Below, piece after piece: positions 10,609 through 27,146 of a stretch of DNA of 27,146 nucleotides. The notes below the pieces were generated by a model. The model ran no database searches and was not told the origin of the DNA. It saw only the letters and a list, made by a program, of their open reading frames with translations. Position 1 is the first letter of the stretch. Each line of letters begins with the position of its first letter. Origin of the DNA: a virus (Duplodnaviria; Heunggongvirae; Uroviricota; Caudoviricetes); IMG/VR virus record IMGVR_UViG_3300029474_000225, positions 99,109 through 126,254 of that record; one strand, given 5' to 3'. The translations under genes and the position numbers were made by a program.

Positions 10609-12888
10609 TTGGATGAAGATGAGATTTATAAATTCACAGCGATAATTACATATGAGCAATACTATTCGGATGATTCAACGTGGGGTGTGTTTGGATTTTC
10701 AACAAAAGATGATATTCCATTCTTTACAAAACCTACAAAAACATTCGATCCGTTTAGCGATAATAAAACCTCTGATGAAGAGAATAAAAAGATGAGTAAG
10801 TTGGCAGGAAAGATGCAGCACTTAGTTGTTGGTGGAGAGTATGTAGTTAAAGCAAAGTATAAAAAGGATAAAAAATATGGCGATCAATATACACCGATTG
10901 CCATATACGCCATTATTCCACAAAGCAGAGAAACACAGTTATTATTTTTGAAGTCAATGATTCCTGAATGGATGGCTGATAATTTAATAAACGCATATCC
11001 AAATGTAGTTAATGATGTAGCGAATGGTACATTAAAAACTATTGATTACAGTCTTGTAAAAGGTGTTAGAGAAATTACTTGGAATAAAATCAAGGAAAAA
11101 ATTATCAATAACTATCTCATTTCTGACATTATCTCAATGTTGAAACCAATTGGTGTCACTTATGCAATGATTAAAAAATTGCTTTCAGAAGAACCAAATC
11201 CAGTTTTATTAAAGCAAGAGTTAGAAAAAAATCCATACATCATGACAAAAATTGATGGGATTGGATTTCGTAAATGTGATGATTTAGCACTGAAGTTAAA
11301 ACCTGAACTAATTGATTCTACACAAAGACTTGTAGCTTTTATTCAATACTATTTCAAAGAACTAGGAGAAAGTAAAGGTCATACATGGTGTTCTGAAAAA
11401 ATTTTAAGAGCAGCCATAAGTAATAATATATACGAGTGTTGCAATAAGGTTAATTGGCTATTAGAAAATAATGACTTTCTTCATATTGATAATGGTCGAA
11501 TTGGTTTGAAATATTATTACGATATTGAGATGCAGATTTATCATTTGATTCTGAATAAATCTCAAATTGAAACAACAATCAATATTTCTGATGAAGCGAT
11601 TGACAAAGCAATTAAACATGCGGAAGAAGAACAGGGATTTGATTATGTAGTAGAGCAGTTAGACACGATTCATAAGAGCTTACATAGAACTGTTAGTTTG
11701 ATAACTGGAAAAGCAGGAACTGGTAAAACATCAATAGTGCGAGCAATTGTTAAGGCTTATATGGAGAATAATTATATGATGACAGCTTCAGCACTTTCAG
11801 CAATGGCAGCTCAGAGAATTACAGAAGCAACAGAATTTCCTGCAATGACTATTCATAGAACACTTGGATGCCAAGGTTTAAATGATTTTACATACAATAA
11901 GGATAATCATTTGATTACAGATGTTGCATTTCTTGATGAGGGAAGTATGGTTAATGCCAGTTTATTTTTACATTGGCTTGAGGCAATTGGAGATAATACA
12001 AGAATTATTATTTCAGGAGATCATAAGCAGTTACCACCTATCGGATTTGGTAACGTGTTCTCAGATTTAATAGAAATGTTTGATGATTCAGTAGTAAGTA
12101 AATTAGTAAAGCCAATGAGACAGGCTGAAAAATCAGGAATACTTGTTGATGCTAATAAGATTAGAGAGAATATCAATCCTATATCTGAAAAATTACAACC
12201 AAGAATTATTCATGGTGAATTACAGGATATGTATTATATGTTCCGTACAAATCGACAGTCTCTTTTCAATATAGCTGTAAAAACATTTATAAAATCTGTA
12301 GAGTCAGATGGAATAGATAATGTTGTAATTGCAGTTCCTCGTAGAAAGGATTGCTTGAATAGTACAACTGAGATTAACAAGGTTATTCAGAATGAGTTGC
12401 TTGGAGACGTATTACAGAGTATTGATGGGTTTGATACTACATTTAAGCTTGGTGCAAAAGTAATGCAAACAGTTAATGATTATGACAAAAATGTGTTTAA
12501 TGGTGAAATAGGTTATGTTACTAAAATCAGTGAAAGATATGAAGGTAAGAAAAAAGAAGAGTATTGTGAAGTTACTTATACTGATGTTTTTGGCAAGGAC
12601 AAGATTATTGAATACACAAAAAAGGAATTGGCTGCATTAGACCTTGCTTACGCAATGACAGTGCATAAGTTACAAGGTGCTGGTAGAAAGACAGTAATTG
12701 GAATTATTGATAATACACATCATCAGCTTCTTGATAACTGTATGCTTTACACATTACTGACAAGAGCAAAGAAAAGATGTTTATTATTGGCTGAACCTGA
12801 AGCGTTTTTACAATGTATTAGGACAAGTCATAACAATAGAAACACTTGGATGATGTTAGAAACAGAGAATAATACAGTAGAAGAGTAA
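10609..12888 (+). CDS. recD2: RecD2-like SF1B helicase
   Basis: NPY...GIGF HhH, Walker A GKAGTGKT, DEGSM, GDHKQLPPIG, MRQA, LAYAMTVHKLQG, LYTLLTRAKK. Confidence 0.9.
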   Translation: MDEDEIYKFTAIITYEQYYSDDSTWGVFGFSTKDDIPFFTKPTKTFDPFSDNKTSDEENKKMSKLAGKMQHLVVGGEYVVKAKYKKDKKYGDQYTPIAIYAIIPQSRETQLLFLKSMIPEWMADNLINAYPNVVNDVANGTLKTIDYSLVKGVREITWNKIKEKIINNYLISDIISMLKPIGVTYAMIKKLLSEEPNPVLLKQELEKNPYIMTKIDGIGFRKCDDLALKLKPELIDSTQRLVAFIQYYFKELGESKGHTWCSEKILRAAISNNIYECCNKVNWLLENNDFLHIDNGRIGLKYYYDIEMQIYHLILNKSQIETTINISDEAIDKAIKHAEEEQGFDYVVEQLDTIHKSLHRTVSLITGKAGTGKTSIVRAIVKAYMENNYMMTASALSAMAAQRITEATEFPAMTIHRTLGCQGLNDFTYNKDNHLITDVAFLDEGSMVNASLFLHWLEAIGDNTRIIISGDHKQLPPIGFGNVFSDLIEMFDDSVVSKLVKPMRQAEKSGILVDANKIRENINPISEKLQPRIIHGELQDMYYMFRTNRQSLFNIAVKTFIKSVESDGIDNVVIAVPRRKDCLNSTTEINKVIQNELLGDVLQSIDGFDTTFKLGAKVMQTVNDYDKNVFNGEIGYVTKISERYEGKKKEEYCEVTYTDVFGKDKIIEYTKKELAALDLAYAMTVHKLQGAGRKTVIGIIDNTHHQLLDNCMLYTLLTRAKKRCLLLAEPEAFLQCIRTSHNNRNTWMMLETENNTVEE

Positions 12889-12905
12889 TTTGAATTTCTG
12901 TTGGA

Positions 12906-12980
12906 TTTCTGGAATGCCCATAAATAGGGCGTTTCAGAGACTCAAAAAGCCAATGAAAGACGGATTTCTCGTCCGTCATT
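12906..12980 (+). promoter_or_regulatory. Structured intergenic element (two hairpins) at the core/accessory boundary
   Basis: TCTGGAATGCCC-ATAAATA-GGGCGTTTCAGA (12-bp stem, 2 G-U; 12908-12938) and GACGGA-TTTCTCG-TCCGTC (12959-12977). Confidence 0.55.
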
Positions 12981-13003
12981 TATATAAAAGAGAGGAGATT
13001 AAA

Positions 13004-13576
13004 ATGTCATATATCATTAAATCAGCAGATGAATTAAAAGATCCATTTTTATGCTATTGTGTTTTTCGTAAATTTATAGAGGAGGCAGGTGAAGATTATA
13101 TTGACTATAATGAGTCAATTATAAATAGCATTCCATTTATATTTTGGCTAAGAGGACGTAATGATATTAATAATGAACAATTAGAAACATTTTTATCAAT
13201 CCAATATAAAATCTGTGTGCAAGATGTTTTAAAAGATGATGTATTATTCCCAAATACATATGGCGATTCTTTCCTATCTGATATTAAAACATATACACTT
13301 CTCGCAGAGTATATGTGCCAATTAAAAGAATTCAGAACAAGACTTTGGAATAGTGTGAACGATGAAGCAACAAATTTTGAAAATGAATCTTTCTATAAAG
13401 ATATTAATAATAATAGTTTAGCGTGTATTATAGAAGAAAATGAATTAAATGATACATGGTATTCTTATGAAGATGTATTAGATATGCCAATGCAGAAGTT
13501 ATATAAATTATCATATAAAAATCAGTTTAATATTGGTAAAAAAATGTCTATAAGAGATGCAGACATTGAACTATAA
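13004..13576 (+). CDS. Hypothetical protein (very AT-rich accessory gene)
   Basis: ATG at 13004 after GAGGAG; the track's upstream extension runs through the hairpin region and is probably not coding. No recognised motif. Confidence 0.6.
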   Translation: MSYIIKSADELKDPFLCYCVFRKFIEEAGEDYIDYNESIINSIPFIFWLRGRNDINNEQLETFLSIQYKICVQDVLKDDVLFPNTYGDSFLSDIKTYTLLAEYMCQLKEFRTRLWNSVNDEATNFENESFYKDINNNSLACIIEENELNDTWYSYEDVLDMPMQKLYKLSYKNQFNIGKKMSIRDADIEL

Positions 13577-13615
13577 TAAACGACAGTTTCTTTGGAAGAT
13601 TTGGAGGTGAATGAG

Positions 13616-14116
13616 TTGTTAGATGTTGCAATCAAATACAAAGAGCAATTAGAAAAACTGCAATACAATATTTGGTTCAAAGATAAATATAAATTTTGGA
13701 ATAATGATACATATTATGATGCTATGACTATTGATGACAATACATGGGAGCGACATCAATTTGTTTCCATTAAAAATGACAATGTGATTGGATATATTAG
13801 TTATTCTGTAAACAGAAGATGTAATTATGCACACAGTTTAAGCATAATGAATTTTACAGACGATAAGATGACGTTTGGTATGGATCTTGGACAGGTATTA
13901 CAAGATATATTCGAAAAATATAATTTTAGAAAGCTTGATTTTTGTGTTGTTGTTGGCAATCCAATTGAAAAATCATATGACAAAATGGTTAAAAAATACA
14001 ATGGAAGAATTGTTGGAATTTTCAAGGACGATGTGAAGTTGATTGATGATAAATACTACGACACAAAACATTATGAAGTTACAAGAGAAAATTATATGAG
14101 TGTAAAGAACAGATAA
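13616..14116 (+). CDS. GNAT-fold protein, RimJ/RimL-like
   Basis: VIGYISY, IFEKYNFRKLDFCVVVGNP and G...DDKYYDTKHYEV follow the RimJ/RimL pattern; TTG 13616 after GGAGGTG. Confidence 0.6.
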   Translation: MLDVAIKYKEQLEKLQYNIWFKDKYKFWNNDTYYDAMTIDDNTWERHQFVSIKNDNVIGYISYSVNRRCNYAHSLSIMNFTDDKMTFGMDLGQVLQDIFEKYNFRKLDFCVVVGNPIEKSYDKMVKKYNGRIVGIFKDDVKLIDDKYYDTKHYEVTRENYMSVKNR

Positions 14117-14154
14117 CAAGAATCCATTATTTCTTGTGAAAGGATGAGAGAATA

Positions 14155-14325
14155 ATGAATAGAAACAGACATTTAAGATACAAACCACTCATAGAAACAA
14201 GACCATTTTTAGGTGGCATAGGAGTATCGGAAAGATGTCATAAATGTAAAACCATAATACAATGCAATAATCTAAATGTAAATGCGGTTGTAGTATCAGA
14301 TGGGATAATGAATGTTAATTTGTAA
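14155..14325 (+). CDS. Small hypothetical protein, 56 aa, CxxC (not in ORF track)
   Basis: MNRNRHLRYKPLIETRPFLGGIGVSERCHKCKTIIQC...VNL*; AAGGA upstream; fills the gap between two boundary motifs. Confidence 0.5.
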   Translation: MNRNRHLRYKPLIETRPFLGGIGVSERCHKCKTIIQCNNLNVNAVVVSDGIMNVNL

Positions 14326-14328
14326 TTC

Positions 14329-15141
14329 ACAGTAAACTAAATTTTTTGAAAAATAAATGGAAGGAGTTAAAAAATTGGAAAATAATTACGAATTATGGCA
14401 AGGAAATTGTTTAGAGCTTATGAAAAATATTCCTGATAAATCAGTTGATATGATTCTATGCGATTTACCGTATGGTACAACAAAATGTTCTTGGGATATT
14501 ATTATTCCATTTGATAAATTGTGGGAACAGTACGATCGTATTACTAAAGATAACGCAGCAATTCTGTTGTTTGGACAAGAACCATTTTCATCGTTGTTAA
14601 GGAATAGTAACATTGATAATTATAAATACGATATTTACTGGGAGAAAGAACGACTTACAAATATCAATCAGGTAAAACGTAGAGTTGGCAAAACAGTTGA
14701 AACAATATCAGTATTTTATAAGAAGCAATGTACATATAATCCTCAGATGGTGAAATATGATGGTAAACCACGAACTAATAAAGTCAAAAACGGTAAGTTA
14801 GGTAAATTGACAGATGAAAACGAAAAGAAAGTGATTGAGTATAAGGATACTGGATGGAGATATCCAACACAGGTTTGGAAGTTTCAAAGAGATTGTTTAA
14901 CTTCAAATCTACATCCAACTCAGAAACCATTGTTGCTTTGTGAAGAACTCATAAAGACATTTTCCAATGAAGGTGATGTTGTTTTAGATAATTGTATGGG
15001 TTCTGGTACAACTGGTGTTGCTTGTAAGAATCTTAATCGAAAATTTATTGGAATTGAGTTAGATGAAAAGTATTTTGAAATGGCGAAAGAGAGAATAAAT
15101 AAGTAACAGTAAACTAAACTTTCTTTTTGAAAATAATGGAA
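14329..15141 (+). repeat. Imperfect ~35-bp direct repeat flanking the methyltransferase gene (14329-14362 and 15106-15141)
   Basis: ACAGTAAACTAAATTTTTTGAAAAATAAATGGAA vs ACAGTAAACTAAACTTTCTTTTTGAAAATAATGGAA; the first 13 bp are identical. Confidence 0.8.
14375..15106 (+). CDS. Orphan DNA methyltransferase, N6-adenine/N4-cytosine, beta class
   Basis: Motif IV DLPY near the N-terminus, HPTQKP, motif I DNCMGSGTTG, FIGIELD; TTG 14375 after AAGGAG; no adjacent endonuclease. Confidence 0.92.
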   Translation: MENNYELWQGNCLELMKNIPDKSVDMILCDLPYGTTKCSWDIIIPFDKLWEQYDRITKDNAAILLFGQEPFSSLLRNSNIDNYKYDIYWEKERLTNINQVKRRVGKTVETISVFYKKQCTYNPQMVKYDGKPRTNKVKNGKLGKLTDENEKKVIEYKDTGWRYPTQVWKFQRDCLTSNLHPTQKPLLLCEELIKTFSNEGDVVLDNCMGSGTTGVACKNLNRKFIGIELDEKYFEMAKERINK

Positions 15142-15169
15142 AGACTTGATTATATAGGGAGGTAGAAAG

Positions 15170-15589
15170 ATGGAATGGTATGTATATTATTATGACATCA
15201 ATCATGGAAATATTATCACATACAATATTTTTGATCATGGTAGCTTTAAAGAAGACTTTAACAAATTGATATCAGATTATAATATCACAAAAGAAGAATT
15301 TGCAAATAAACTTGATATTATGCTTAGATATTATTTCTGGTCAAAAGCTCAATGGGAGACATTTTTGAAGCCTTGGGTTGGAGATAGCAAGGTTGAAAAG
15401 AAGATTGATGTGTATGACCAAATTAAACTTAACTGGGACAAATTCTTAGAATATACATATAACTGTAATTTTAAAACATACGCAGATGTTATTGAATATG
15501 AAAAATATAAAAACATCGGCACTGTTGAAGAGTGTGAAAAAGCAATGAAGTTTGTAAAACACTATCAGGAAGAGAATAAATATTTATAA
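15170..15589 (+). CDS. Hypothetical phage protein
   Basis: ATG after GGGAGG; 139 aa, aromatic-rich; no function recognised. Confidence 0.65.
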   Translation: MEWYVYYYDINHGNIITYNIFDHGSFKEDFNKLISDYNITKEEFANKLDIMLRYYFWSKAQWETFLKPWVGDSKVEKKIDVYDQIKLNWDKFLEYTYNCNFKTYADVIEYEKYKNIGTVEECEKAMKFVKHYQEENKYL

Positions 15590-15604
15590 GGAGGATCAAG
15601 TATA

Positions 15605-16330
15605 TTGAAAGCTACAGTAACAAGTATTACAGGATTTTATGAAGCATTTGTATCTATGTTTATGAGTAAAAGAACGTGGACACCAGAATTGAACGAAGAA
15701 ATTAAAGTTGTATGCGATAAGGTTTTAAATCCTGATGGAAGATTAAAAGAGGATCAAGAGGTTGAAAGCTATGATAAGTTTTGTAAATGGCTTGGGATGC
15801 TGCTTCGTATGGGCAAAAGACATATTACAGTTCTTAGATACATTGACATTACAATTATGACAGAAGGATTGCATAGAGCAGGACAAGATGACGTTGATGC
15901 ACACGCAAGAAGATTTGATAATCGAATTATTAGAAACAGTACAAGGTTAGCAACATTTGATGAAGGAGAAATGTCAGATTATTACAAGGATAAAGTATTA
16001 ACAGATGGACAGGCTTGCAAAATTCTTGGATTTGGATTACCAAACGAGATTGAGCATGATGGTAAAACATATGTAAAATCGACTAATGGATATGTTTTAA
16101 AAGAATATGAGAATAACAAAGATGTAAAACGTGGTCTTTATATGTTGGGTATTCCAAGCAATTTTATATCTAAAATCAATCTTTGTGAATGGGGACACGT
16201 ATTTAGAGAGCGTTGTGCTGATGGCGGTGCTAATCCAGAAGTAAAAGAATGGGCAGAACAGGTTATGAAACAGATTACGGAATTTCATAAAGAGATTACA
16301 AGAGATTATGTTTTATCAATTCAAAACTAA
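15605..16330 (+). CDS. Divergent ThyX/Thy1-fold (flavin-dependent thymidylate synthase-like) protein
   Basis: RHITVLRYIDITIMTEGLHRA...NSTRL and INLCEWGHVFRERC...ANPEVKEWA parallel ThyX GHxSVLEH..F..EG.SRA...SQRY and MN.R....F...RC...AQWEIR..A. The RHR motif is degenerate. Confidence 0.55.
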   Translation: MKATVTSITGFYEAFVSMFMSKRTWTPELNEEIKVVCDKVLNPDGRLKEDQEVESYDKFCKWLGMLLRMGKRHITVLRYIDITIMTEGLHRAGQDDVDAHARRFDNRIIRNSTRLATFDEGEMSDYYKDKVLTDGQACKILGFGLPNEIEHDGKTYVKSTNGYVLKEYENNKDVKRGLYMLGIPSNFISKINLCEWGHVFRERCADGGANPEVKEWAEQVMKQITEFHKEITRDYVLSIQN

Positions 16331-16358
16331 ATCCTGATTTCAAGAGAGGAGGAATTGA

Positions 16359-17636
16359 ATGGAAGAAGTAATTAAAATTTTCAAACAGATACAAAATACA
16401 AGTAGTACAAATGATAAGAAAGCCATCATTGAAGCAAACAAAGATAACGAATTATTCAAAAAGTGCTTAGTGTTCTTACTTGATTCAAATATTGTAACTG
16501 GTATCAGCGATAAGAAATTAAATAAATTCGTTGGTATGTCAGGAACAGAATTGAACTCTTTTGAAGAAGTAATGAAATACTTAGCTGATTTTAATTCAGG
16601 TAGCGATATGGATATTGGAACTATGCAAGGGTTTATCGAGAATCAACCAGAAGAATACCAAGATTTTTATAAACAAATGATCACAAAGAAATTTCGTCTT
16701 GGTTGTGATAAAAAAGTTGTAAACAGTGTAATTCATGGTTTGATTCCATCATGGGACGTACAACAAGCATATCCTATTTCTGAAAAGAATGAACCCAAAG
16801 ATGGTGAATGGTTTGCGTTATCTCAGAAGCTTAATGGTAATAACTGCGCATACTATAAAGGAAAACTAATTAGTAGACAAGGTAAACCATTTACAGGTCT
16901 TGACCACATCATTAAAGATATTGAACGATTACCAAAACATGAAAACTATATGTTTAATGGTGAGCTAATTCGTAAAAATTATGATAATCTTTCTGATAAT
17001 GACAACTTTCAGATTGGAACTGGTATTATCAATTCTGACGATTCTGACAAGTCTTGCATCAAATTTGTAATCTATGAATGTATCCCAAACGAAGAATTTG
17101 AAAATGGTGAGAGTAAATTAAAGTACAAAGATCGTAGAGAACATGTGTTGAATCCATTAACAATCGCAATTTCTCGACTTCAGACAGATAATCTTGAGGT
17201 TGTTCCTATTATATATGAAGGAACTGATAAATCGGTTATTCAACCATTGCTTAATAAAGCAGATAAAGATGGTTGGGAAGGTTTAATGCTCAACAAAGAT
17301 ACAAAGTGGAAGAATAAACGTAATAACGGAATTCTTAAAGTCAAGTCATTTAAACATGCAGATATTCGTTGCACTGACGTTATCGAAGGTGATGGCAAAT
17401 ACAAAGGTACGCTTGGACTAATCAAATGTGATTACAAAGGATATGAACTTGGTGTAGGATCTGGATTTACTGATGAGCAGAGAACTTACTATTGGAACAA
17501 TCCTGGTGAGATTATTGGCAAAATTGTGCAGATTAAATTCAAAGGCGAAACAAAGAATAAAAATGGTGGAATTTCGGTTCAGTTCCCTATTTTTGAAATC
17601 GTAAGAGATGACAAATCTGAACCTTCTTATAATTAA
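16359..17636 (+). CDS. ATP-dependent DNA ligase
   Basis: Motif I SQKLNG, SRQGK, FNGEL, EGLML, LKVK, and C-terminal OB domain VGSGFTDEQR...QFPIF..VR.DK. Confidence 0.88.
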   Translation: MEEVIKIFKQIQNTSSTNDKKAIIEANKDNELFKKCLVFLLDSNIVTGISDKKLNKFVGMSGTELNSFEEVMKYLADFNSGSDMDIGTMQGFIENQPEEYQDFYKQMITKKFRLGCDKKVVNSVIHGLIPSWDVQQAYPISEKNEPKDGEWFALSQKLNGNNCAYYKGKLISRQGKPFTGLDHIIKDIERLPKHENYMFNGELIRKNYDNLSDNDNFQIGTGIINSDDSDKSCIKFVIYECIPNEEFENGESKLKYKDRREHVLNPLTIAISRLQTDNLEVVPIIYEGTDKSVIQPLLNKADKDGWEGLMLNKDTKWKNKRNNGILKVKSFKHADIRCTDVIEGDGKYKGTLGLIKCDYKGYELGVGSGFTDEQRTYYWNNPGEIIGKIVQIKFKGETKNKNGGISVQFPIFEIVRDDKSEPSYN

Positions 17637-17712
17637 CAATTCGCTAAATATTCCCAATTCAAACAGAGAACATACAAATGTAACATATTAACAGTACAAA
17701 AGGAGGCAATGT

Positions 17713-18516
17713 ATTTTATTACGAAAAATGACATTTGGAATGGTTGTTGTTGTGGCTCTTGTAACTTCTGTTCCAACAGCACAAGCAGAGGTTTGTAACA
17801 AACCTTGCATAACGGTTACGCCCTGTCTTACGGCAGGGTTTAGCAATCAATTAAACTTATTATCTCAATCAAAAGAAGTAACTAAGTACAAGAAAAAATA
17901 TGTAAAAGGTACATATGTGAACATTCGAGAGCAACCAAGCAAGAACTCAGAAGTTATCAAACAAGTTTCGTTTAATGAAAAAGTTATTATCATTGGAAAT
18001 AAACTTACGAATGGTGTTTGGTATACTGTCGATCTTAATGACAAAACTGGTTATATCCATAAAGATTATGTATCTGACAAAACAATCAATTACAAGATCT
18101 ATAATGTTCCATACGCAAAAAATAAGACTTGGATGCCATACACAACAATTACCAGTAGACGGAGTAAACAGTATAAGCTTCAACAGAAAGCATATACAGG
18201 TGATTATGGTATTCGAATGGTAAATGAAAGGTATTGTGTGGCACTTGGTTCACATTTTGAGTGTAAAATTGGTCAGTATTTTGACTTGATTTTAGCAAAC
18301 GGTACAGTGATTCCTTGTATCATGTCTGATCAAAAGGCTAATAAGCACACTGATTCTGCGAATATCATTACGACTTCTACAAATTGTTTAAGTGAATTTA
18401 TTGTAGACAGGAATGCTTTAAATTATGAAGCAAAACGTGACGGAGATATATCTTCTTGCTGTCCAGAATGGAAGTCAGTTGTAAAACAAATTAAAGTATA
18501 CGAAAAGGTGATTTGA
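17713..18516 (+). CDS. Secreted SH3b-domain cell-wall-associated protein with possible 3D/DPBB-like C-terminal domain
   Basis: Signal-peptide-like N-terminus ending TAQA; SH3b VNIREQPS...WY.V....TGYIHKDYV; C-terminal YCVALGSHF...G..IPCIMSD. Start is ATT 17713 (6 nt after AGGAGG) or ATG 17728. Confidence 0.65.
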   Translation: MLLRKMTFGMVVVVALVTSVPTAQAEVCNKPCITVTPCLTAGFSNQLNLLSQSKEVTKYKKKYVKGTYVNIREQPSKNSEVIKQVSFNEKVIIIGNKLTNGVWYTVDLNDKTGYIHKDYVSDKTINYKIYNVPYAKNKTWMPYTTITSRRSKQYKLQQKAYTGDYGIRMVNERYCVALGSHFECKIGQYFDLILANGTVIPCIMSDQKANKHTDSANIITTSTNCLSEFIVDRNALNYEAKRDGDISSCCPEWKSVVKQIKVYEKVI

Positions 18517-18557
18517 TGTTTATTAGTGGGTTTTGTCTAAGAGAGGTGAAAAACGAA

Positions 18558-18809
18558 TTGGAAAGAACGTATAAATTAAATTTACAAAGTATCAATGATG
18601 CAAAAGATTTTGTAGTTGCAATCAATAAATTAAATAGCGAAGTTGATGCGAGATACGGTGTACGTGTTGTCGATGCAAAATCTATGTTGGGCTTGCTAAA
18701 TATGTCTCATTGCAAGCCGTTAGAGATGACCATTTACTCTGATAATGAAAATGAGATAAGTGAATTTGCTGAAATTTGCAAGAAATATGAGGTAAAAAAG
18801 AATGATTAA
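18558..18809 (+). CDS. HPr-family (PTS phosphocarrier-like) protein lacking His15
   Basis: VDAKSMLGLLNM matches the HPr Ser46 signature; no GLHARP motif; TTG 18558 after GAGGTG. Confidence 0.75.
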   Translation: MERTYKLNLQSINDAKDFVVAINKLNSEVDARYGVRVVDAKSMLGLLNMSHCKPLEMTIYSDNENEISEFAEICKKYEVKKND

Positions 18810-19014
18810 TTATTCGCAGGTATTAGAGTTAGATAATATCAGAAAAGAAGATATTATCAGAATATATGACATAGGAAAACACAAAACGGTAAAGAAGAGA
18901 TTTATCATAAACGATGGTAGGATTGTAGATATTATTGATCAAAAAGGATATGTCGGAGAAGAAAGGGAGGAAGAAGAATATTTTAATAATTTGCGGAAAA
19001 TCGGCAAGTGGTAA
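18802..19014 (+). CDS. Small hypothetical protein
   Basis: ATG after GAGGT, overlaps the HPr-like stop; 3' end overlaps the kinase start. Confidence 0.5.
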   Translation: MINYSQVLELDNIRKEDIIRIYDIGKHKTVKKRFIINDGRIVDIIDQKGYVGEEREEEEYFNNLRKIGKW

Positions 19015-19546
19015 AACATTTGTCAGAGATAAATTAGTAAAGGAACATGGCTATAAAAGTCTAGTAGCATTCACATCTCGTCCATCACGCAAAGGTGAAA
19101 AACAGGATATCACATATCACTTTATTTCTCAAGAAGAGTTTGAACAGAAAATTGAAGATGGATTTTTTGCAGAATGGAAGAAATATGATACTGAGCAAGG
19201 TGTTTGGTATTATGGCACTGCATTAACGGATTGTTATGACGCAGACGATGATACCGTAGCGATTCTTACGCCTGAAGGTGTGAGAGATTTGCAAGCAATA
19301 GAGATCCATATGACTGTCATTTACTTATATAGTAATTTAAACACGATTAAACAGAGATTGTCTATTCGTGGCGATAATCCAAAAGAAGTTGAAAGGCGTA
19401 TGAAAGCTGATATTAAAGATTTTAATGGTGCTGAAATGTTGGCTGATAGAATTGTATATAACAATTTATCTGATGATATTGAGGATGTTATCAGTAATGT
19501 TGACTATTGGTATAAAAAAATTTTAAAGGAGAAAGCGGATGAGTAA
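18980..19546 (+). CDS. gmk: Guanylate-kinase-like (d)NMP kinase
   Basis: GKSASGKT, TSRPSRKGE...YHFIS, YYGT. Start uncertain: ATT 18980 after GGGAGG, or ATG 18950. Confidence 0.82.
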   Translation: MLIICGKSASGKTFVRDKLVKEHGYKSLVAFTSRPSRKGEKQDITYHFISQEEFEQKIEDGFFAEWKKYDTEQGVWYYGTALTDCYDADDDTVAILTPEGVRDLQAIEIHMTVIYLYSNLNTIKQRLSIRGDNPKEVERRMKADIKDFNGAEMLADRIVYNNLSDDIEDVISNVDYWYKKILKEKADE

Positions 19547-20005
19547 TAAATTAACTATTTACTTGGCTGGACGTATGGGTGGTCTTACAAAAACTGAATA
19601 TAACACATGGAGAGAAATGTTAAAGAAGAAACTCGAAATTGCAGCAGAGTGTTGTAATTCAATGGTTCAGGTCATCAATCCTGCCGATTATTTTGATTTG
19701 ATAACATGGAAGGTCATACAGAAAAGGAAGTTATGCAGTTTGATCTTAACATGGTACATCAAAGCGATATTGTGATTGCAAACATCAATGGTATCAATGA
19801 AAGTATCGGAACAGCAATCGAAGTTTACGAAGCAAATAGATTAAATATCCCTGTTATTGCATATTCAGACGTATTAGATGCCAAAAAAGGAGACATTTTT
19901 GACAAGATTCACCCTTGGATCAAGGAATGTTTGGCAACGAAACTAATGTTTCATGCGGATGATGTTGTGCAGTATGTGAAGGATTTTTATATGGTTAGAT
20001 ATTAG
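19539..20005 (+). pseudogene. Nucleoside 2-deoxyribosyltransferase-like (NDT/DNPH1/MilB superfamily) gene split by a 1-nt frameshift
   Basis: IYLAG...INP in ORF 19539 continues as DL..V..SDIVIA...SIGTAIE...IPVI in ORF 19706. Adding one T at ~19697-19699 restores a single ORF (YFDFDNMEG). Confidence 0.75.
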
Positions 20006-20013
20006 GAAAGGAA

Positions 20014-20199
20014 GTGATTGAGATATACACAGGATATATGAGTTGTCGAAGTCTTGCTGATGCGTTATATGATAAAGACAATTTCGTAACAGTTCAAGTT
20101 GGAGACAGAGAATATTATATTAAAACGGTTAAGCAGAAACGAACACATGCTAATTTAGATGATTCTGTAATGCATACTGTTCTAGTTTGTGAAGAATAG
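20014..20199 (+). CDS. Small hypothetical protein
   Basis: Fills the gap after AAGGAAG; start is GTG 20014 or ATA 20023. Confidence 0.5.
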   Translation: MIEIYTGYMSCRSLADALYDKDNFVTVQVGDREYYIKTVKQKRTHANLDDSVMHTVLVCEE

Positions 20200-20212
20200 A
20201 TTGGAGGTAATT

Positions 20213-20368
20213 ATGCTAGATATGACGTTATGTAGCAGTTTACATTGTCCAGTAAAAGGAGATTGTTTTCGTGCCACCGCAAAACCAAATCCAGTGAAAC
20301 AAAGTTATTATAATTTTGAATATACATGTCACGAGGATAATGGCTTTGCAGATTTTATTAAAAAATGA
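20213..20368 (+). CDS. Small Cys-rich protein, 51 aa (not in ORF track)
   Basis: GGAGGT RBS; MLDMTLCSSLHCPVKGDCFRAT...YTCHED...KK*; four Cys, possibly metal-binding. Confidence 0.7.
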   Translation: MLDMTLCSSLHCPVKGDCFRATAKPNPVKQSYYNFEYTCHEDNGFADFIKK

Positions 20369-20417
20369 AAAGAAAGAAATGTTGATTTCTTATAGAATCG
20401 AGAAAGGAGAATAATAT

Positions 20418-20591
20418 ATGTGTTTAACAGTAAAAGAAGTAAAAGAAATTTTGGACGGAATGCGTGATGATGCATTGGTTTTAGCAGATAAAGAGCTTGA
20501 GGGCGATGCCGCACATGAACTAACTGCTTATGAATATCCATCTGGCGATAAAAAGGATTGGAATTTTGTAATTTTAACGTGGGAGAAATAG
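20418..20591 (+). CDS. Small acidic hypothetical protein, 57 aa (not in ORF track)
   Basis: AAGGAG RBS; MCLTVKEVKEILDGMRDDALV...VILTWEK*. Confidence 0.65.
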   Translation: MCLTVKEVKEILDGMRDDALVLADKELEGDAAHELTAYEYPSGDKKDWNFVILTWEK

Positions 20592-20603
20592 GAAGAAGAT
20601 AAA

Positions 20604-20708
20604 ATGAAATTCAATATTATAGATTGTATAGAATTTGAGATTGATTGGAAAGCTGTAGCAGCGATTGCGGCATGTGTACTTGGTTATGCAATCATAACAG
20701 TAATTTAG
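20604..20708 (+). CDS. Small single-pass membrane peptide, 34 aa (not in ORF track)
   Basis: MKFNIIDCIEFEIDWKAVAAIAACVLGYAIITVI*; AGGAAG upstream; stop sits directly before the nrdD RBS. Confidence 0.55.
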   Translation: MKFNIIDCIEFEIDWKAVAAIAACVLGYAIITVI

Positions 20709-20725
20709 AAAGGAGATTTTACATA

Positions 20726-23700
20726 TTGACAAAAGTAATTAAAAGAGATTGTTCAGAGGTTGATTTTGACAAATCAAAAATCTCAACTGCAATTCTTAAA
20801 GCAATGAAAAATGGCTCAGGTATTGTAAAACCAAAGATTGCAGAAGATATTGCAGACGAGATTGAAAATGAATGTAAGGATAAAGACGAAGTAAGCATCT
20901 CTGATATTGAATCAATGGTTTATGATAAATTGATTACAAAAAAGCAGAGACTTACTGCAAAAGCGTATGAAGGATATAGAAGTATTCGTGAGTTTCAGAG
21001 AGAAAATGAGAATACAACAGATGAAGAAATTCACAATCTTGTAGAAGACAAAGATGAATATTGGAAGGATGAAAATGCAAATAAAAATCCTGTATTAAAC
21101 CCTACCAAAAGAGATTATATTGCTGGATCTGTTAGCACAGATATAACAAAAAGATATTTATTATCTCCTGAAATTATTCAGGCTCATAATGATGGACTAA
21201 TTCATTTTCATGATGCTGATTATTTCTTGCAGCACATGCATAACTGTGGGTTGGTCAATTCTGAAGATATGCTTCAAAATAACACAGTTATTAGCGAAAC
21301 TCTTATTGAAACACCGCATAGCTTTTCAACTGCTTGTAATATTGAAACACAGGCTATCGCACAGATTGCTAGTAACCAATATGGAGGACAAAGTATTTCT
21401 TTAGCACATCTTGCTCCATTTGTTAATGTGAGTAGAAAATCAATCAGAAAGAAAGTAACAGAAGAATTATATGATAATGGATTAATTAGTGAGTATGATG
21501 AAGACCTTGCAGAAGTTGTTCATATAACAAATAAACGATTAAAAGAAGAAATAGAAAAAGGTGTTCAGACAATCCAGTATCAGTTGGTCACACTTATGAC
21601 AACAAATGGACAAGCACCGTTTATCACAATTTTTATGTATCTGAACGAAGCAAAGAACGAATGTGAGAAAGCAGACTTAGCAATGTTAATTGAAGAAATG
21701 CTTCACCAGAGAATTCAAGGTGTGAAAAATGAAAAAGGCGTTTATATTGCACCTGCATTCCCAAAACTGATTTATGTATTAGAAGAAGATAATATCACAG
21801 AAGATTCAAAATATTGGTATCTTACAGAATTAGCAGCTAAATGTACATCTAAGAGACTTGTCCCTGATTACATATCTGAAAAAATGATGCTTGAATTAAA
21901 GGGTGATGTCTATACGTGTATGGGATGCGTTGACGGAAAAGAACTTATTACATATAAGATTAAGAATAATTTATATGTAGAATCGTTTGAAAGAATGTGG
22001 AGAAGGTTGTCTGATTCATTTGAAATTAAACACCAGTATTCCGAAACTAATCCTAATTTATATATGGATTTATCAGAAGTAACGATTTATGATACAGAAA
22101 AAGGATTTGTTGAAACAAAAAGAATTATTCGTAATGTATCAAGTGAATGGTTGGATGTGGACTTTTCTAATGGTAGAAGATTATTATGTACAACAGATCA
22201 TCCATTAACATTAAGAGATGGTAGAAATGTACACGCATCAGAATTGAAACTTGGAGACAAAATCTTAATCAACTCAAATCAATATAATGAAGAATCAATT
22301 CTTTTTAATACTGATAAAGCATGGCTATTGGGATTTATGTTATGTGATGGATGTTATCAAAATAACCATGTGTTTGCATCTATTGCTGCAACAGGAGAAG
22401 ATGAAATTGAAGAAAAATTTAGCAATACATTTACTAAATATTTCGGTCTAAATGTTAAAACAATTCTACAAGAACGTGGTAAAAAAGGAACATACAAAGA
22501 TTTATGTGCAATTTCAGATAATAACGGTGGAATTCAATATGTAACAAATTATTTTACATCAAAATTTGGCGGTATCAATAAAGTAAATAGACAAATTCCA
22601 AATGAAGTATTCTCATGGAATTATGAAGCGAAACTTGCCTTTTTTGCAGGAATGATTGATGCAGACGGATATATCAATTCACATCAAAATGAAAATAACT
22701 TTTCTACTGTTCAAATCGGCTCTACTAATAAAGAATTAGCACTTCAGCAAATGGCATTAGCACAATCTATTGGAATCCCCGCTAAAATTTATCATAATCA
22801 TTACACAAAGAAAAATCCAGAATTGATTAGATATAGGGTTGAATTTTACCCAACTGATGAATTAGTTAATTACATTGTATGCAAAAAGAAATGTGATAAC
22901 TATATTGAATCAAATGTATCAGGATATGCTATTGAATCAGAGGTCATCAAGATTAATCCGATTCATAAAGAAATGTATAGTTATGATGTGACAACATCTA
23001 GTGAGCATTTTGAAGTTAGTGGTATTTATAGCCACAATTGCCGAAGTTTTCTGACCGTTGATAGATTTACAGATAAAGTAGGAAATATTGCAAACGCAAA
23101 GAACTTTGATCCAAACAAACACAAATATTATGGACGATTCAATCAGGGTGTTGTAACGATTTCACTTCCAGATATCGCTTTCTCATCTGACGGAGATTTT
23201 GATAAGTTTTGGGAAATTTTTGAGGAAAGAACGGAATTATGCCATAAAGCATTAAGATCAAGGCATGAGCGATTACTTGGTACATCTTCTGATGTAGCAC
23301 CTATTCTATGGCAGCATGGAGCATATGCCAGATTAAAGAAACATGAGAAAATCGACAGGCTTCTTTATGATGGTTATTCTACAATATCACTTGGTTATGC
23401 TGGTTTATATGAATGTGTAAAATTTATGACTGGTCATTCCCATTCTGATGAGGGGATTGGCGAAGAATTTGGATTAAAGGTTATGCAGGCATTAAACGAT
23501 AAATGTAATCAGTGGAAAAAGGTTGAAAACATTGACTATAGTTTGTACGGAACACCATTAGAGTCCACGACTTACAAATTTGCAAAATGTCTTAAATCTC
23601 GATTTGGCGAAAATATCTTTAAAGAATTAGATGGTTTCGATAGAAATTACATCACTAATTCATATCATATTCCAGTTTTTGAACATATTACAGCATTTGA

Positions 23701-24091
23701 AAAACTAAGAATCGAATCAAAATTCCAGAAATTAAGTCCAGGAGGAGCAATTTCATATATCGAAGTACCAAGTATGAGCCATAATATTCCTGCTATATTA
23801 GAAGTTATTAAGTTTATTTATAACAATATCATGTATGCAGAGATTAACACAAAAAGTTGTTATTGTGAGAAATGTGGCTTTGATGGCGATATTCCTCTTG
23901 TATCAGATGAAAACAATAGACTTAAATGGGAATGTCCTAGCTGTGGGAATACTGACAATACAACAATGGATATAGCATTTAGAGTTTGTGGTTATATTGG
24001 TACTGCAAAAAATGGTGGTAATCAGGGTAGATATGGTGACATTCATGACCGTGTTTATCATTTGGACGACATGGAATATGCGGAGGATTAA
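20726..24091 (+). CDS. nrdD: Anaerobic (class III) ribonucleoside-triphosphate reductase, intein-containing
   Basis: ATP cone VIKRD, HFHDAD, HNC, QYGGQS, FPKL, MG/CRSFL split by the intein, GRFNQGV, YITNSYH, CEKC/CPSC Zn site, glycyl loop RVCGY; TTG 20726 after AAGGAG. Confidence 0.96.
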   Translation: MTKVIKRDCSEVDFDKSKISTAILKAMKNGSGIVKPKIAEDIADEIENECKDKDEVSISDIESMVYDKLITKKQRLTAKAYEGYRSIREFQRENENTTDEEIHNLVEDKDEYWKDENANKNPVLNPTKRDYIAGSVSTDITKRYLLSPEIIQAHNDGLIHFHDADYFLQHMHNCGLVNSEDMLQNNTVISETLIETPHSFSTACNIETQAIAQIASNQYGGQSISLAHLAPFVNVSRKSIRKKVTEELYDNGLISEYDEDLAEVVHITNKRLKEEIEKGVQTIQYQLVTLMTTNGQAPFITIFMYLNEAKNECEKADLAMLIEEMLHQRIQGVKNEKGVYIAPAFPKLIYVLEEDNITEDSKYWYLTELAAKCTSKRLVPDYISEKMMLELKGDVYTCMGCVDGKELITYKIKNNLYVESFERMWRRLSDSFEIKHQYSETNPNLYMDLSEVTIYDTEKGFVETKRIIRNVSSEWLDVDFSNGRRLLCTTDHPLTLRDGRNVHASELKLGDKILINSNQYNEESILFNTDKAWLLGFMLCDGCYQNNHVFASIAATGEDEIEEKFSNTFTKYFGLNVKTILQERGKKGTYKDLCAISDNNGGIQYVTNYFTSKFGGINKVNRQIPNEVFSWNYEAKLAFFAGMIDADGYINSHQNENNFSTVQIGSTNKELALQQMALAQSIGIPAKIYHNHYTKKNPELIRYRVEFYPTDELVNYIVCKKKCDNYIESNVSGYAIESEVIKINPIHKEMYSYDVTTSSEHFEVSGIYSHNCRSFLTVDRFTDKVGNIANAKNFDPNKHKYYGRFNQGVVTISLPDIAFSSDGDFDKFWEIFEERTELCHKALRSRHERLLGTSSDVAPILWQHGAYARLKKHEKIDRLLYDGYSTISLGYAGLYECVKFMTGHSHSDEGIGEEFGLKVMQALNDKCNQWKKVENIDYSLYGTPLESTTYKFAKCLKSRFGENIFKELDGFDRNYITNSYHIPVFEHITAFEKLRIESKFQKLSPGGAISYIEVPSMSHNIPAILEVIKFIYNNIMYAEINTKSCYCEKCGFDGDIPLVSDENNRLKWECPSCGNTDNTTMDIAFRVCGYIGTAKNGGNQGRYGDIHDRVYHLDDMEYAED
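21926..23038 (+). mobile_element. Intein (371 aa) with LAGLIDADG homing endonuclease inside nrdD
   Basis: Starts C(VDG), block B CTTDHP, LAGLIDADG motifs WLLGFMLCDG and FFAGMIDADG, block F SYDVT, ends SHN followed by extein Cys. Confidence 0.95.
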
Positions 24092-24093
24092 AT

Positions 24094-24657
24094 ATGAGGT
24101 ATGCAAGTATACGTAGCCTTGATATTTCTAATGGAGAGGGAGTTGGAGTCTCCCTCTTCGTCCAAGGCTGTCCATTTCACTGTAAAAACTGTTTTAATTC
24201 TGAAACATGGGATTTTAATGGTGGGAAAGAGTGGACAGAAAAAACAAAAAATAAATTTATGGAACTTATTAATAGACCGTATATTAAACGAGTATCATTT
24301 CTTGGTGGAGAATGTTTAGCGGATCAGAACCTTGATGAAGTCCTCAAATTAGTCAAACAAATCCGTATTTCTTTTCCTGAGAAATCTATTTGGTTATATA
24401 CAGGATTTCAATGGAATTACATAATGAATTATCAACCTGTAGAAACAGATGATTTTGATTATATTGAAGAATCTTATAATGATAGATTGATGGAAAAACG
24501 CAAGCAGATAATTTCTTTGTGCAATGTCGTGGTTGATGGAGAATATATAGATGAGCAGAAAGATCTCACACTTGCTTATCGTGGCAGTAAGAATCAGCAT
24601 GTTATTGATGTAAAACAGTCTCTCGCTCAGAACAAAATGGTTTTATATTGCGATTAA
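24094..24657 (+). CDS. nrdG: Anaerobic RNR activating protein (radical SAM)
   Basis: NGEG...SLFVQGCPFHCKNCFN (CX3CX2C), LGGE, WLYTG, VDG.Y, RGSKNQ; immediately follows nrdD. Confidence 0.95.
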   Translation: MRYASIRSLDISNGEGVGVSLFVQGCPFHCKNCFNSETWDFNGGKEWTEKTKNKFMELINRPYIKRVSFLGGECLADQNLDEVLKLVKQIRISFPEKSIWLYTGFQWNYIMNYQPVETDDFDYIEESYNDRLMEKRKQIISLCNVVVDGEYIDEQKDLTLAYRGSKNQHVIDVKQSLAQNKMVLYCD

Positions 24658-25589: not shown

Positions 25590-25796
25590 GTGATTTATAT
25601 AAAACAAACAATAGAAATAAAAGATAAAATAAATCTTACGATTCCAGAAGCATCTACATACTCTAATATTGGAGAAACAACAATTAGAAAATTGCTTTCC
25701 GAAAAAGCATGTCCCTTCTTATTAAAAATTGGTAATAAACATCTTGTAAAAAGAGTTGAATTTGAAAAATATTTAGCTGGAAAGCATTTTATTTAA
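25590..25796 (+). CDS. xis: Excisionase (Xis-type winged HTH)
   Basis: LTIPEASTYSNIGETTIRKL...LKIGNKHLVKRVEFEKYL; directly upstream of a tyrosine integrase. Start is GTG 25590 or ATA 25599. Confidence 0.85.
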   Translation: MIYIKQTIEIKDKINLTIPEASTYSNIGETTIRKLLSEKACPFLLKIGNKHLVKRVEFEKYLAGKHFI

Positions 25797-25797
25797 T

Positions 25798-25851
25798 TTG
25801 GTAAAAGAACTTTTGTGTGATATAATACAGTCATGCAAAAGTTCTTTGCCA
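25798..25851 (+). promoter_or_regulatory. SigA-type integrase promoter embedded in a long inverted repeat
   Basis: TTGGTA (25798)-17 bp-TATAAT (25821) with extended TG. Arms TGGTAAAAGAACTTTTGTGTGA / TCATGCAAAAGTTCTTTGCCA. Confidence 0.75.
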
Positions 25852-25871
25852 TATACAAGGAGGAAATACGA

Positions 25872-27146
25872 TTGGGCAAAGATCTTAAAGGAAAAGAATT
25901 GGGACAAGGAATAATACAGAAAAAGAATGGGAGGTATGAAGCAAGATATATAGATAGATTTGGTAAAAGGGTATCAATTTCAGGCAGAGATCTAAAAGAT
26001 GTTAAAAAGAGATATAATGAAGCAATTTACGAAAATGACAAGCAAATAAACGTAAAAGACAATATAACACTTGACGAATGGTATAAAAAATGGATGAACG
26101 TTTACAAGTTTGATATTATTCGTGAAAACACAAAAAGACATTATAATAATGTATATTATAAGCATATATCTCCGAGTCTTGGGAATTTTCAATTAGGAAG
26201 TATTACTCAATATCAAATCAAACAACTTATCAAAGAATTAAAGAGTAGTGGGTATCAATACGAAACGTGCAACAAGGTAAAAATTCTTCTTGTTGATATT
26301 TTTAACAAAGCTATGATTAACGAATATGTGCGAAAGAATCCAGCAAAAGGAATATCATTAAAAAGAGATGAAGAAAAAAGTGTAAGAGTTTTGTCACAGG
26401 ATGAACAAACGGTATTCTTTGATTGTTGTAAGGGAACATTTTATGACAATCTGTTTGTTACGGCAGTATCAACAGGAATGAGGATTGGAGAACTTGCTGC
26501 TTTAAGATGGACAGATGTTGACTGGGATAGTAGAGTAATTCATGTAACTAGAACTCTCGTATATCAGAAATATGAAAACGACAGTCAAAAGGAATATCAT
26601 TTTGAAAAGCCAAAGACAAGAACTAGCTTAAGAGATATACCAATCAACAGACAGTGTGAAATAGCATTAAAGAAACAATTTATTCAAAAGTCTGTTGTTG
26701 CTACTAAGCAACCCATTACAAAGAAAATTGACGATAAATATGCTGATTTGTTATTTACATCAAAATTCAACACACCATTAAATTCGCAAGTTGTATGTCA
26801 AGCAATTAACAAAATTATAGAAGAGGTAAATCTTACGAAAGATTATCTGGATGAAATAGAGCCATTTTCTGCACATTGTTTTCGCCACACATTTGCGACA
26901 CGTTGTTTTGAAGCTGGTATTGCACCAAAGACAGTACAAGCATATCTAGGACACTCATCTCTACAAATGACAATGGATTTGTATACATCAGTTATGCCAA
27001 AACAGATGGAGACAGAGATGGATAAAGTGTCTAAGGAGCTTGATCGAATTTCAGAATATGGCGATGAATTAGCAGAAAAACAGTTCGAAAATATGTCTTC
27101 AAATAACAAAATTGTTTCTTTCCGTGGAGATTCAATGGTGGTATAA
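25872..27146 (+). CDS. int: Tyrosine integrase with Tn916-like N-terminal arm-binding domain
   Basis: TTG 25872 after AAGGAGG; GKDLKGKELG.G..Q.KNGRY.ARY; catalytic TGMRIGE (R), KPKT (K), HCFRH, LGH and DLY (Y). Confidence 0.93.
   Translation: MGKDLKGKELGQGIIQKKNGRYEARYIDRFGKRVSISGRDLKDVKKRYNEAIYENDKQINVKDNITLDEWYKKWMNVYKFDIIRENTKRHYNNVYYKHISPSLGNFQLGSITQYQIKQLIKELKSSGYQYETCNKVKILLVDIFNKAMINEYVRKNPAKGISLKRDEEKSVRVLSQDEQTVFFDCCKGTFYDNLFVTAVSTGMRIGELAALRWTDVDWDSRVIHVTRTLVYQKYENDSQKEYHFEKPKTRTSLRDIPINRQCEIALKKQFIQKSVVATKQPITKKIDDKYADLLFTSKFNTPLNSQVVCQAINKIIEEVNLTKDYLDEIEPFSAHCFRHTFATRCFEAGIAPKTVQAYLGHSSLQMTMDLYTSVMPKQMETEMDKVSKELDRISEYGDELAEKQFENMSSNNKIVSFRGDSMVV

Follow-up and report, generated by a model that had tools for sequence, protein, structure and literature searches.

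Position-specific palindromes at the exchange points of accessory genes in SPbeta-like phages: candidate addressed crossover sites

The stretch of DNA analysed here (the window) is 27,146 nt long and forms the last 27 kb of a 126,254-bp IMG/VR provirus (IMGVR_UViG_3300029474_000225), an SPbeta-like Lachnospiraceae prophage of 126 kb. Many of its accessory genes are preceded by a copy of a short palindromic motif, [GT]AA[AT]-N6-TTTC, and this motif is the element under study. The first part of the window encodes an SSB-like protein, a Sak4-like annealase, DnaB, primase, a RecJ-like protein, a DnaE-type polymerase and a RecD-like helicase. The helicase gene is followed by a run of small genes leading to an N6/N4 DNA methyltransferase (MTase), a ThyX-like protein, a ligase and a guanylate kinase, and the distal part holds an intein-bearing NrdD, NrdG, dUTPase and a Tn916-type Xis/Int pair. 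This layout parallels yorF-yosS of SPbeta. Elsewhere the genome encodes a YonO-like RNA polymerase (PF05183 match), HU, ClpP, PhoH, Ku and a sigma/ParB-like fusion, and two further tyrosine recombinases (TR1 and TR2) are also encoded outside the window. Relatives of the helicase are found in Lachnospiraceae genomes, including Roseburia sp. 1XD42-69 and Acetatifactor muris DSM 23669. A megablast search with window positions 12000-21000 found no close cultured relative in the phage collection, where the best DnaE match is 34% identical.

An earlier note, made from the letters of the window, listed seven copies of the motif (at 12955, 13577, 14120, 14333 as a TTTT variant, 15110, 16328 and 20376), and all seven are present. 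Six of them start at a stop codon or at most 7 nt past one; the exception is the copy at 12955, which lies 67 nt past the helicase stop. A scan of the window agrees with the note that the intergenic gaps of the replisome are without a copy. A weight matrix supports most of the listed copies, but scores two of them poorly (16328 and 14333) and adds a strong copy at 19939 that had been overlooked.

Site A (GAAA-GACGGA-TTTC, 12955..12968; this and all other features of the array are on the plus strand) marks the border between the conserved helicase unit and a hypervariable array. It scores higher on the minus strand (15.5 vs 10.2). The cassette in slot A>B encodes a 190-aa hypothetical protein (13004..13576) and is followed by site B (TAAA-CGACAG-TTTC, 13577..13590; score 18.3), the first three bases of which are a TAA directly past the upstream stop. 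The cassette in slot B>C (13592..14116) encodes a 174-aa protein. It had been labelled GNAT, for which there is no support in Pfam or NCBIfam, and its sole match is phrog_30343, a family of unknown function. Site C (GAAT-CCATTA-TTTC, 14120..14133; score 21.9) precedes a gene for a 56-aa peptide (14155..14325), which is absent from two relatives (loci L018 and L045) and from one pig-gut contig.

The MTase cassette (14357..15106, PF01555) is bracketed by two D-type sites. To its left lies site D' (TAAA-CTAAAT-TTTT, 14333..14346), a degenerate duplicate of site D with a score below 6, and to its right site D itself (TAAA-CTAAAC-TTTC, 15110..15123; score 18.4). The earlier note had remarked on the shared core of this pair, and the two cores are indeed near-identical (CTAAAT vs CTAAAC) and lie within a gapped direct repeat of ~40 nt. 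Locus L047 shows the arrangement without the MTase. The leader of the MTase gene in relatives follows centres A, C or D'; three or four different cores stand ahead of it. Further downstream is a two-gene unit, a 139-aa hypothetical protein and a ThyX-like thymidylate synthase (15170..16330), with no motif between the genes. The weak site after it (TAAA-TCCTGA-TTTC, 16328..16341; score 7.1) takes its TAA from the stop codon of the ThyX-like gene and precedes the gene for an ATP-dependent DNA ligase. The overlooked strong site (GAAA-CTAATG-TTTC, 19939..19952; score 19.7) lies 61 nt ahead of a GTG at 20014, and its CTAATG centre is found at the corresponding place in L025, L045 and L060. The last site of the array (GAAA-TGTTGA-TTTC, 20376..20389; score 11.2) stands ahead of the last small genes before nrdD and occupies the position where relatives have centre G (GGTTGA).

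The earlier note relied on the position of the copies rather than on their number. The number is modestly raised for the strict TTTC form, with 27 matches in the window vs 15.4 +/- 4.0 expected (0 of 100 shuffles reach 27), but not for the TTTY form, which is not enriched (53 vs 46.3; reached by 19 of 100 shuffles). Over the whole 126-kb genome, where the intergenic share is 9.4%, 28 of the 62 plus-strand matches with N6 are intergenic, vs 1-5 for each of the spacings N3-N5 and N7-N10. This spacing control is decisive, and the motif is specific for the 6-bp spacing.

The consensus of 24 aligned intergenic copies, cAnAR-KAAW-N6-TTTC-WTKnGRA, is an imperfect palindrome of ~24 bp with a core of 14 bp. 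The last C of the motif lies ~20-35 nt ahead of start codons, directly 5' of the ribosome-binding site (RBS), the motif is co-oriented with transcription, and TAA stop codons form the left arm at many sites. There are ~40 sites per genome, mostly in early and accessory regions; copies found with the weight matrix cluster between 40 and 100 kb and between 110 and 120 kb of the genome, and they are few in the late region (0-40 kb) and in the replisome block. Conservation of the arms is symmetric, and base-pair covariation is absent among 218 unique sites. The arms vary by lineage, being GAAA/TTTC here, TGAAA/TTTCA in more distant relatives and TAAAA/TTTTA in Bacillus. The weight matrix finds few sites in more distant Lachnospiraceae prophages, because it was built on the flanks of this clade. 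High-scoring copies also occur inside open reading frames (ORFs), namely dUTPase (25260-25273; 18.3), the intein region of NrdD (22691-22704; 11.5) and NrdG (24358-24371; 9.2), and the homology between L045 and the window begins at 24354, adjoining the NrdG copy.

Promoter-like sites between window positions 12500 and 21000 number 51 vs 48.3 expected and terminator-like sites 3 vs 2.1, and these patterns are not tied to the motif, save for a weak hairpin at site A. At this site (12959-12977) the centre pairs with its complement 7 nt downstream, giving a terminator-like hairpin that is also present in L033, L061 and L062. Pairing of the centre with a nearby complement explains site A of the window but was rejected by eye as a general feature, and most relatives are without the hairpin. 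Many relatives carry a long inverted repeat directly after the helicase site, at about locus positions 12350-12420 (L011, L017, L020-L022, L024, L025, L027, L031, L040, L043, L048, L058 and L065), with stems like ACAATATATAGT ... ACTATATATTGT; the window is without it. Its loops and stems vary among loci as if compensatory, and it may be a structured RNA or an operator.

Relatives were compared in two independent regions, 79 IMG/VR loci around the helicase with 73-99% amino-acid identity (region 1) and 80 loci around the gene of the CCA-adding enzyme (region 2). The earlier note had proposed, as a check, to see whether the breakpoints of gene gain and loss lie in the motif, and the breakpoints among relatives do coincide with it at nucleotide resolution, in both regions, in animal-gut and wastewater contigs and in cultured SPbeta-like phages of Bacillus. 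In about half of the 79 loci, homology to the window stops at 12966-12972, the end of the copy at 12955-12968. The helicase-side anchor is found in 44 of the 79, and these are mostly window-like up to or near TTTC and then continue with many different sequences. In the all-vs-all comparison of region 1, right homology ends are most frequent between offsets -1 and +2 relative to the last C (48, 75, 37 and 53 ends), and left homology starts between offsets -16 and -12. The same two peaks stand out in region 2: offset 0 has 159 ends, and the peak of starts has counts of 137, 117 and 137, compared with ~2.4 per offset under a uniform spread. The breakpoints lie on both edges of the 14-bp core.

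Junctions were counted as sharp and unique if identity was at least 95% inside and no more than 50% outside. In region 1, 197 of 477 and 67 of 312 of these junctions fall in motif windows; for region 2 the figures are 231 of 1039 and 246 of 995. Motif windows make up 7.2 kb of the 1544 kb of DNA in region 1 (other gene edges, 92 kb) and 15.6 kb of the 1521 kb in region 2 (other gene edges, 133 kb). They are therefore 0.5-1% of the DNA, and junctions are 4-15 times as dense in them as at other gene edges. Within the variable stretch of region 1, a sharp break is found at 70 of the 102 compact gene junctions with the motif vs 121 of the 686 without it, an odds ratio of 10.2.

The 24 listed sequencing runs, the best of which holds 0.48 of the sampled words, are in contig form, in which uncovered stretches carry no meaning and circles, transcript ends or rare empty sites cannot be revealed. 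Contigs from pig gut, other animal gut and wastewater break or join at the same points, namely 12968, 13601, 14114/14117, 14133>14344 and 15106/15114. A pig-gut contig departs from the window after 12968, the end of site A, a joint in a pig-gut contig fuses 14133 to 14344 and so removes the 56-aa cassette exactly, and gut contigs depart upstream of 15106 and 15114 at site D. In the comparison of related loci, several homology blocks stop at 16342 or begin at 16347-16359. One contig of wastewater run X1 (depth 2.8) has a 22-nt insertion after 15349, inside the gene of the 139-aa hypothetical protein.

The 6-bp centres behave as addresses. Among 295 sites there are 95 different centres, and seven of them dominate, each with many left and many right contexts. 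Among the 30 sites centred on CCATTA, the left context takes 13 forms and the right context 18, in 29 combinations; CGACAG is found at 28 sites (14 left, 14 right) and CTAAAC at 16 sites (9 left, 10 right). The centre of each site is its own and is conserved, and the set of centres follows one fixed order, A>B>C>D>E>F>G (GACGGA > CGACAG > CCATTA > CTAAAC > TTGGAC > TGTTCA > GGTTGA), in every close relative. Slots are at times skipped, but none is out of order when the list is read by eye, and no inversion was found, with 0 minus-strand matches of at least 300 nt among 80 sequences (the 79 loci and the window). The DNA between the sites is highly diverse, its 138 segments falling into 98 families, and slot A>B alone has 21 families among 24 segments. 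Segment families are mostly confined to their own slot.

Conservation of the centre was assessed in orthologous site pairs that were picked by their far flanks, with a matrix blind to the centre; the zero divergence of the centre in loci picked by the core itself was discounted as circular. In these pairs the divergence is 0.006 in the centre, 0.045-0.062 in the far flanks and 0.24-0.36 at the unconstrained arm positions (0, 4, 15, 17, 18 and 20). The centre is specific to its site, ~10 times more conserved than the flanks and ~50 times more than the free arm positions. An unbiased view is given by the leader upstream of one conserved gene, which is present in 59 of 81 loci. Of the leaders that bear the motif, all but two have the centre CGCACA, behind at least 6 different left contexts (read by eye).

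Variation is strong in the 8 bases that follow TTTC, even where the contexts are near-identical. A site of region 2 ahead of a gene for an RlaP-like protein (genome 72258-72271) has these bases in at least 11 forms, such as TTGCGGAA, CTATGGAA and TTATGAAA, in contexts that hardly differ otherwise. Its free positions diverge by 0.55 vs 0.24 at four-fold sites of the downstream gene; candidate explanations are exchange of short patches, tuning of expression and drift where positions are unconstrained.

The position of the switch between neighbours follows from linkage. In 1569 pairs with the same left and different right contexts, identity is kept through position 14 and collapses at position 15, and in 930 pairs of the reverse arrangement identity stays at background up to position 0. 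Positions up to 14 (including 0, 1 and 4) go with the left neighbour and positions from 15 onwards with the right neighbour; therefore, the exchange point is within positions 5-14. The linkage switch thus falls in a crossover window of ~10 bp. The core is common to both neighbours, and the cassettes have no site of their own.

The same design is found in the SPbeta-like phages of Bacillus, where the arms differ. In SPbeta, GAAA-N6-TTTC is not enriched (5 intergenic matches vs 1-5 at other spacings), whereas TAAAA-N6-TTTTA has 34 copies vs a mean of 1.4 for other spacings, and these copies are placed alike, over stop codons and ahead of the next RBS. The 34 palindromes are unannotated in the SPBc2 record NC_001884 (L088, L089 and L250), which has just generic stem_loop and two 'palindrome' features. 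Seven cultured phages were compared (SPbeta, phi3T, SPR, Goe11, Goe12, Goe13 and BUCT082). In these, the 16-bp site has 24 of 100 right homology ends at its last bases and ~24 of 105 left homology starts at its first bases. The Bacillus centres are also position-specific, ordered and flanked by 2-4 different contexts. Conserved, position-specific centres are present in two phage groups, Lachnospiraceae and Bacillus, that are ~30% identical in their polymerase.

These features suggest that the motif may be an addressed crossover site, at which exchange would probably proceed through TR1 or TR2 acting on the 6-bp centre. This interpretation is offered tentatively, with somewhat less than even confidence. 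The palindrome core parts the units of RBS and ORF in accessory regions, and related phages differ exactly there. Since the arms are symmetric and do not covary, they point to a protein dimer on duplex DNA; such a dimer would bind the arms, and exchange would be catalysed at the centre. Related genomes in one cell would then swap everything on one side of the site, in register. Unlike centres would prevent recombination among the ~40 sites within a genome, and allelic sites could still exchange. The core geometry of tyrosine recombinases (symmetric arms, a 6-bp centre and partners that share the whole core) is present, and it fits other readings too.

TR1 or TR2 would be the enzyme. Judged by their sequences, both are apparently intact, orphan Xer-like tyrosine recombinases. 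TR1 (genome 20693-21727) matches YomM of SPbeta with 30% identity (E 2e-22). TR2 (genome 60437-61426) matches XerA, XerH and XerD (E 2e-16), with a score of 120 bits for the XerC model, and 146 related stretches carry it. A relationship of TR2 to YopR or YopP was rejected, as BLASTP similarity is absent. TR2 belongs to a block (G000 60159-62358) that also encodes a DUF6618 protein, a 64-aa HTH_3 protein with weak RstR/DicA-like matches, a 63-aa ORF and a MazF/PemK-like toxin, and this block may be a lysogeny-control or addiction module.

The closest parallel in design is an engineered one. Heterospecific lox or FRT sites have identical arms and different spacers, so only like sites recombine, and a cassette flanked by two unlike sites is swapped in register and is safe from deletion. 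The motif shares the identical arms and differing centres; the difference is that lox/FRT exchange is a laboratory design, whereas this would be a natural phage system with hypothetical catalysis. A literature search, which had subscription journals (including the 1999 SPbeta genome paper) outside its scope, found no natural phage system of this kind and no description of these palindromes. It is possible, if doubtful, that SPbeta-like phages from Bacillus to gut Lachnospiraceae use a natural form of recombinase-mediated cassette exchange, performed by an enzyme of the YomM/TR1 or TR2 type.

Several observations weigh against this role of a recombinase. Its assignment draws on geometry and on the availability of the enzymes, and an arrangement of 4-bp arm, 6-bp gap and 4-bp arm suits operators of Xre/Cro-type helix-turn-helix proteins equally. 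The TR genes are 40-90 kb distant from the array of the window, and the predicted catalytic Tyr of TR2 aligns two places off that of XerA. That the site stands in a fixed register to the RBS points to a role in expression. Recombination would place merely indirect selection on the centre, so its strict conservation is not fully explained. The loci are interrelated and the junction counts are not independent events; moreover, just 21-41% of the sharp junctions are in motif windows, the remainder being at other gene edges or inside ORFs. Finally, in laboratory hybrids of phi3Ts and SPbeta, 15 of 16 recombination sites are ordinary homology, according to the accessible part of that report (10.1101/2020.05.06.055103). 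The strict palindromes are not at the bounds of the 725-bp 's' replacement in phi3Ts, as far as the coordinates given in the source go.

The palindrome could instead be the docking site of a dimeric regulator, for example of the Xre/Cro helix-turn-helix type, which would govern or block transcription into each gene downstream, with cassette exchange as a by-product; an array of repressor operators was the main alternative of the earlier note. The sites would then resemble stoperators and would be the sole conserved islands in hypervariable DNA, where general or short-homology recombination by the Sak4-, RecJ- and RecD-like proteins resolves. This is a serious possibility, though well short of a probable one. 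It agrees with the location of the sites 20-35 nt ahead of start codons, just 5' of the RBS, at ~40 mostly early or accessory places, with half-sites that are symmetric and do not covary, and with lineage-specific arms, which is how operator-repressor pairs behave. The phage encodes HTH_3 and HTH_26 proteins that could serve as the regulator, and the window encodes a recombination toolkit. Junctions are found away from the motif too, and the laboratory hybrids arose by ordinary homologous recombination, as the same partly accessible source reports (10.1101/2020.05.06.055103). However, an uncontacted gap should drift, yet the centre is ~10 times more conserved than coding flanks and ~50 times more than free arm positions. 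The centres are independent of both neighbouring genes yet fixed by position, and ~10 identical bases are very short for homologous recombination, yet there are dozens of context combinations. A promoter-like signal was also not found with the sites between 12500 and 21000. Neither a recombination site nor a regulator site fully accounts for the strict conservation of the centre.

Known repeated sites of temperate phages were compared on this point. In cluster A mycobacteriophages, a monomer reads the stoperators, which are asymmetric, 13 bp long and devoid of a variable centre, in the accessible parts of the papers (PMC9283540, PMC6550527). As with the motif, one short sequence recurs, some 20-35 times, in the small gaps between genes of a temperate phage; it is bound by a phage regulator, and a link to mosaic junctions is not described for it in those parts (PMC9283540, PMC6550527). 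An operator array would fit the placement and symmetry seen here, with occupancy by a regulator as a hypothetical element. SPBRE, a repeated intergenic element in the same phage family, is the MrpR/SroF operator of SPbeta and is bound by a protein with a tyrosine-recombinase fold. According to the available text, SPBRE occurs ~10 times, in promoter regions, and a monomer recognises its long asymmetric box (PMC10516654; 10.1101/2025.11.27.690993). Identity of the motif with SPBRE was rejected, since the core derived from seven SPbeta upstream regions is asymmetric and unlike either palindrome, and the 15-bp MrpR box is unmatched.

The PeSL of T4-type phages offer a further comparison. They are short conserved modules between non-essential genes of hyperplastic regions (Arbiol et al. 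2010, PMC2839356), consisting of a sigma-70 promoter and a terminator stem-loop, which provide homology for general recombination; nearby copies can yield mini-circles, according to the parts available (PMC2839356). The likeness is in insertions, deletions and replacements between close relatives at short intergenic modules, again as partly available (PMC2839356; Comeau et al. 2014, PMC4122927). The motif differs in being a palindrome of 14-24 bp with a site-specific conserved centre and a fixed order of addresses, and a promoter/terminator model of the PeSL type was rejected as neither signal is enriched between 12500 and 21000.

It is very unlikely that the site functions through a hairpin, folded either in RNA or in single-stranded DNA, for mRNA processing, translational control or as an attC-like site. 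An inverted repeat in the 5' leader of the downstream gene, co-oriented with transcription, would suit such a role, but Watson-Crick pairs match the expectation of independence at all variable mirror positions of the 218 unique sites, for example 66 vs 68.3 at (0,15), 88 vs 80.1 at (-2,17) and 60 vs 67.2 at (5,10). A G1>T change, which gives a T.C mismatch, is uncompensated in 60 of the 218. Just two A-T pairs are guaranteed, and the stem would be very weak.

The earlier note had read the array as an integron- or pdif-like capture system, an interpretation that is only partly supported, in contrast to its observation of the motif. In its strict form, single cassettes would excise as circles and reinsert anywhere through a dedicated integrase or host Xer, and this is highly improbable. 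Single-gene units without recognisable promoters, the MTase between duplicated D-type sites, the contig joint that deletes the 56-aa cassette exactly and the presence of tyrosine recombinases are what such a system would give; integrons likewise have imperfect palindromes at cassette borders and a high diversity of cassettes at one locus. However, the order of site types is fixed here, cassette families are bound to their slots, and the core is shared by both neighbours, with no private site on the cassette. Neither reordering of cassettes nor inversion was seen (0 minus-strand matches of at least 300 nt among the 80 sequences), and the covariation and fold of attC are absent. An IntI-type integrase is lacking as well, with scores on TIGR02249 (integron integrase) of 29.8 bits for TR2 and 54 for the Tn916-like Int and no match for TR1, against a cut-off of 265. 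In pdif sites, which resemble the dif site of the host and occur in alternating orientation, the arms are 11 bp long and asymmetric, one side for XerC and one for XerD. The arms of the motif are instead short and symmetric, its centres are position-specific, all sites are in one fixed linear order and any recombinase would be phage-encoded. Common to both are accessory modules bounded by inverted arms around a 6-bp centre and shuffled among related replicons, going by the accessible parts of the pdif papers (PMC6449649, PMC13141974). The comparison with the variable coupling sequences of Tn916 fails too, as the 6-bp centre is here the most conserved part of each site.

It is barely credible that there is no special site, that breakpoints fall at gene boundaries merely because selection keeps genes intact, and that the motif just reflects stop codons and leaders rich in A+T. 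In favour of this view, the motif is a short A+T-rich sequence, its left arm is provided by TAA stops at many sites and other gene edges are enriched for junctions too; yet the enrichment is specific to the N6 spacing, junctions are 4-15 times as dense in motif windows as at other gene edges (odds ratio 10.2 within the variable region), the breaks are on the exact edges of the core, and conserved position-specific centres recur in two phage groups with polymerases ~30% identical.

The remaining genes of note are context to the array. The Tn916-type tyrosine integrase (25833..27146, plus strand) and its Xis (25590-25796) are presumably the integration module of the prophage and are not linked to the motif by the data here. 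The intein of NrdD (window 20645-24091) includes a homing-endonuclease domain of the LAGLIDADG type (Pfam Intein_splicing, LAGLIDADG_3 and Hom_end), and nrdE of SPbeta also bears an intein and an intron. A second N6/N4 methyltransferase is encoded outside the window (G000 81765-82529), with a 165-nt stretch 70% identical to the MTase of the window, and the genome additionally codes for C5, D12 and other methylase genes.

Relative to the papers searched, the position-specific conserved centres, their fixed order and the crossover window of ~10 bp are new; a term look-up in the accessible parts of the preprints of Kohm et al. and Dragos et al. found no description of the palindromes. At the exchange points where large temperate phages with a stable genome plan quickly turn over their accessory genes, the finding places a defined element 14-24 bp long. 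These accessory genes are probably genes of defence and counter-defence. Since the same design is present in SPbeta and phi3T of Bacillus subtilis, a tractable host, it is directly testable. If the proposed exchange is true, single accessory genes would be swapped in register, which would give hypervariable slots in which gene order is never scrambled. If a recombinase is responsible, the system would be a natural counterpart of engineered exchange between heterospecific sites and would offer a ready tool with which to engineer phages module by module. Otherwise, it would show clearly how regulatory sites shape the mosaicism of phages.

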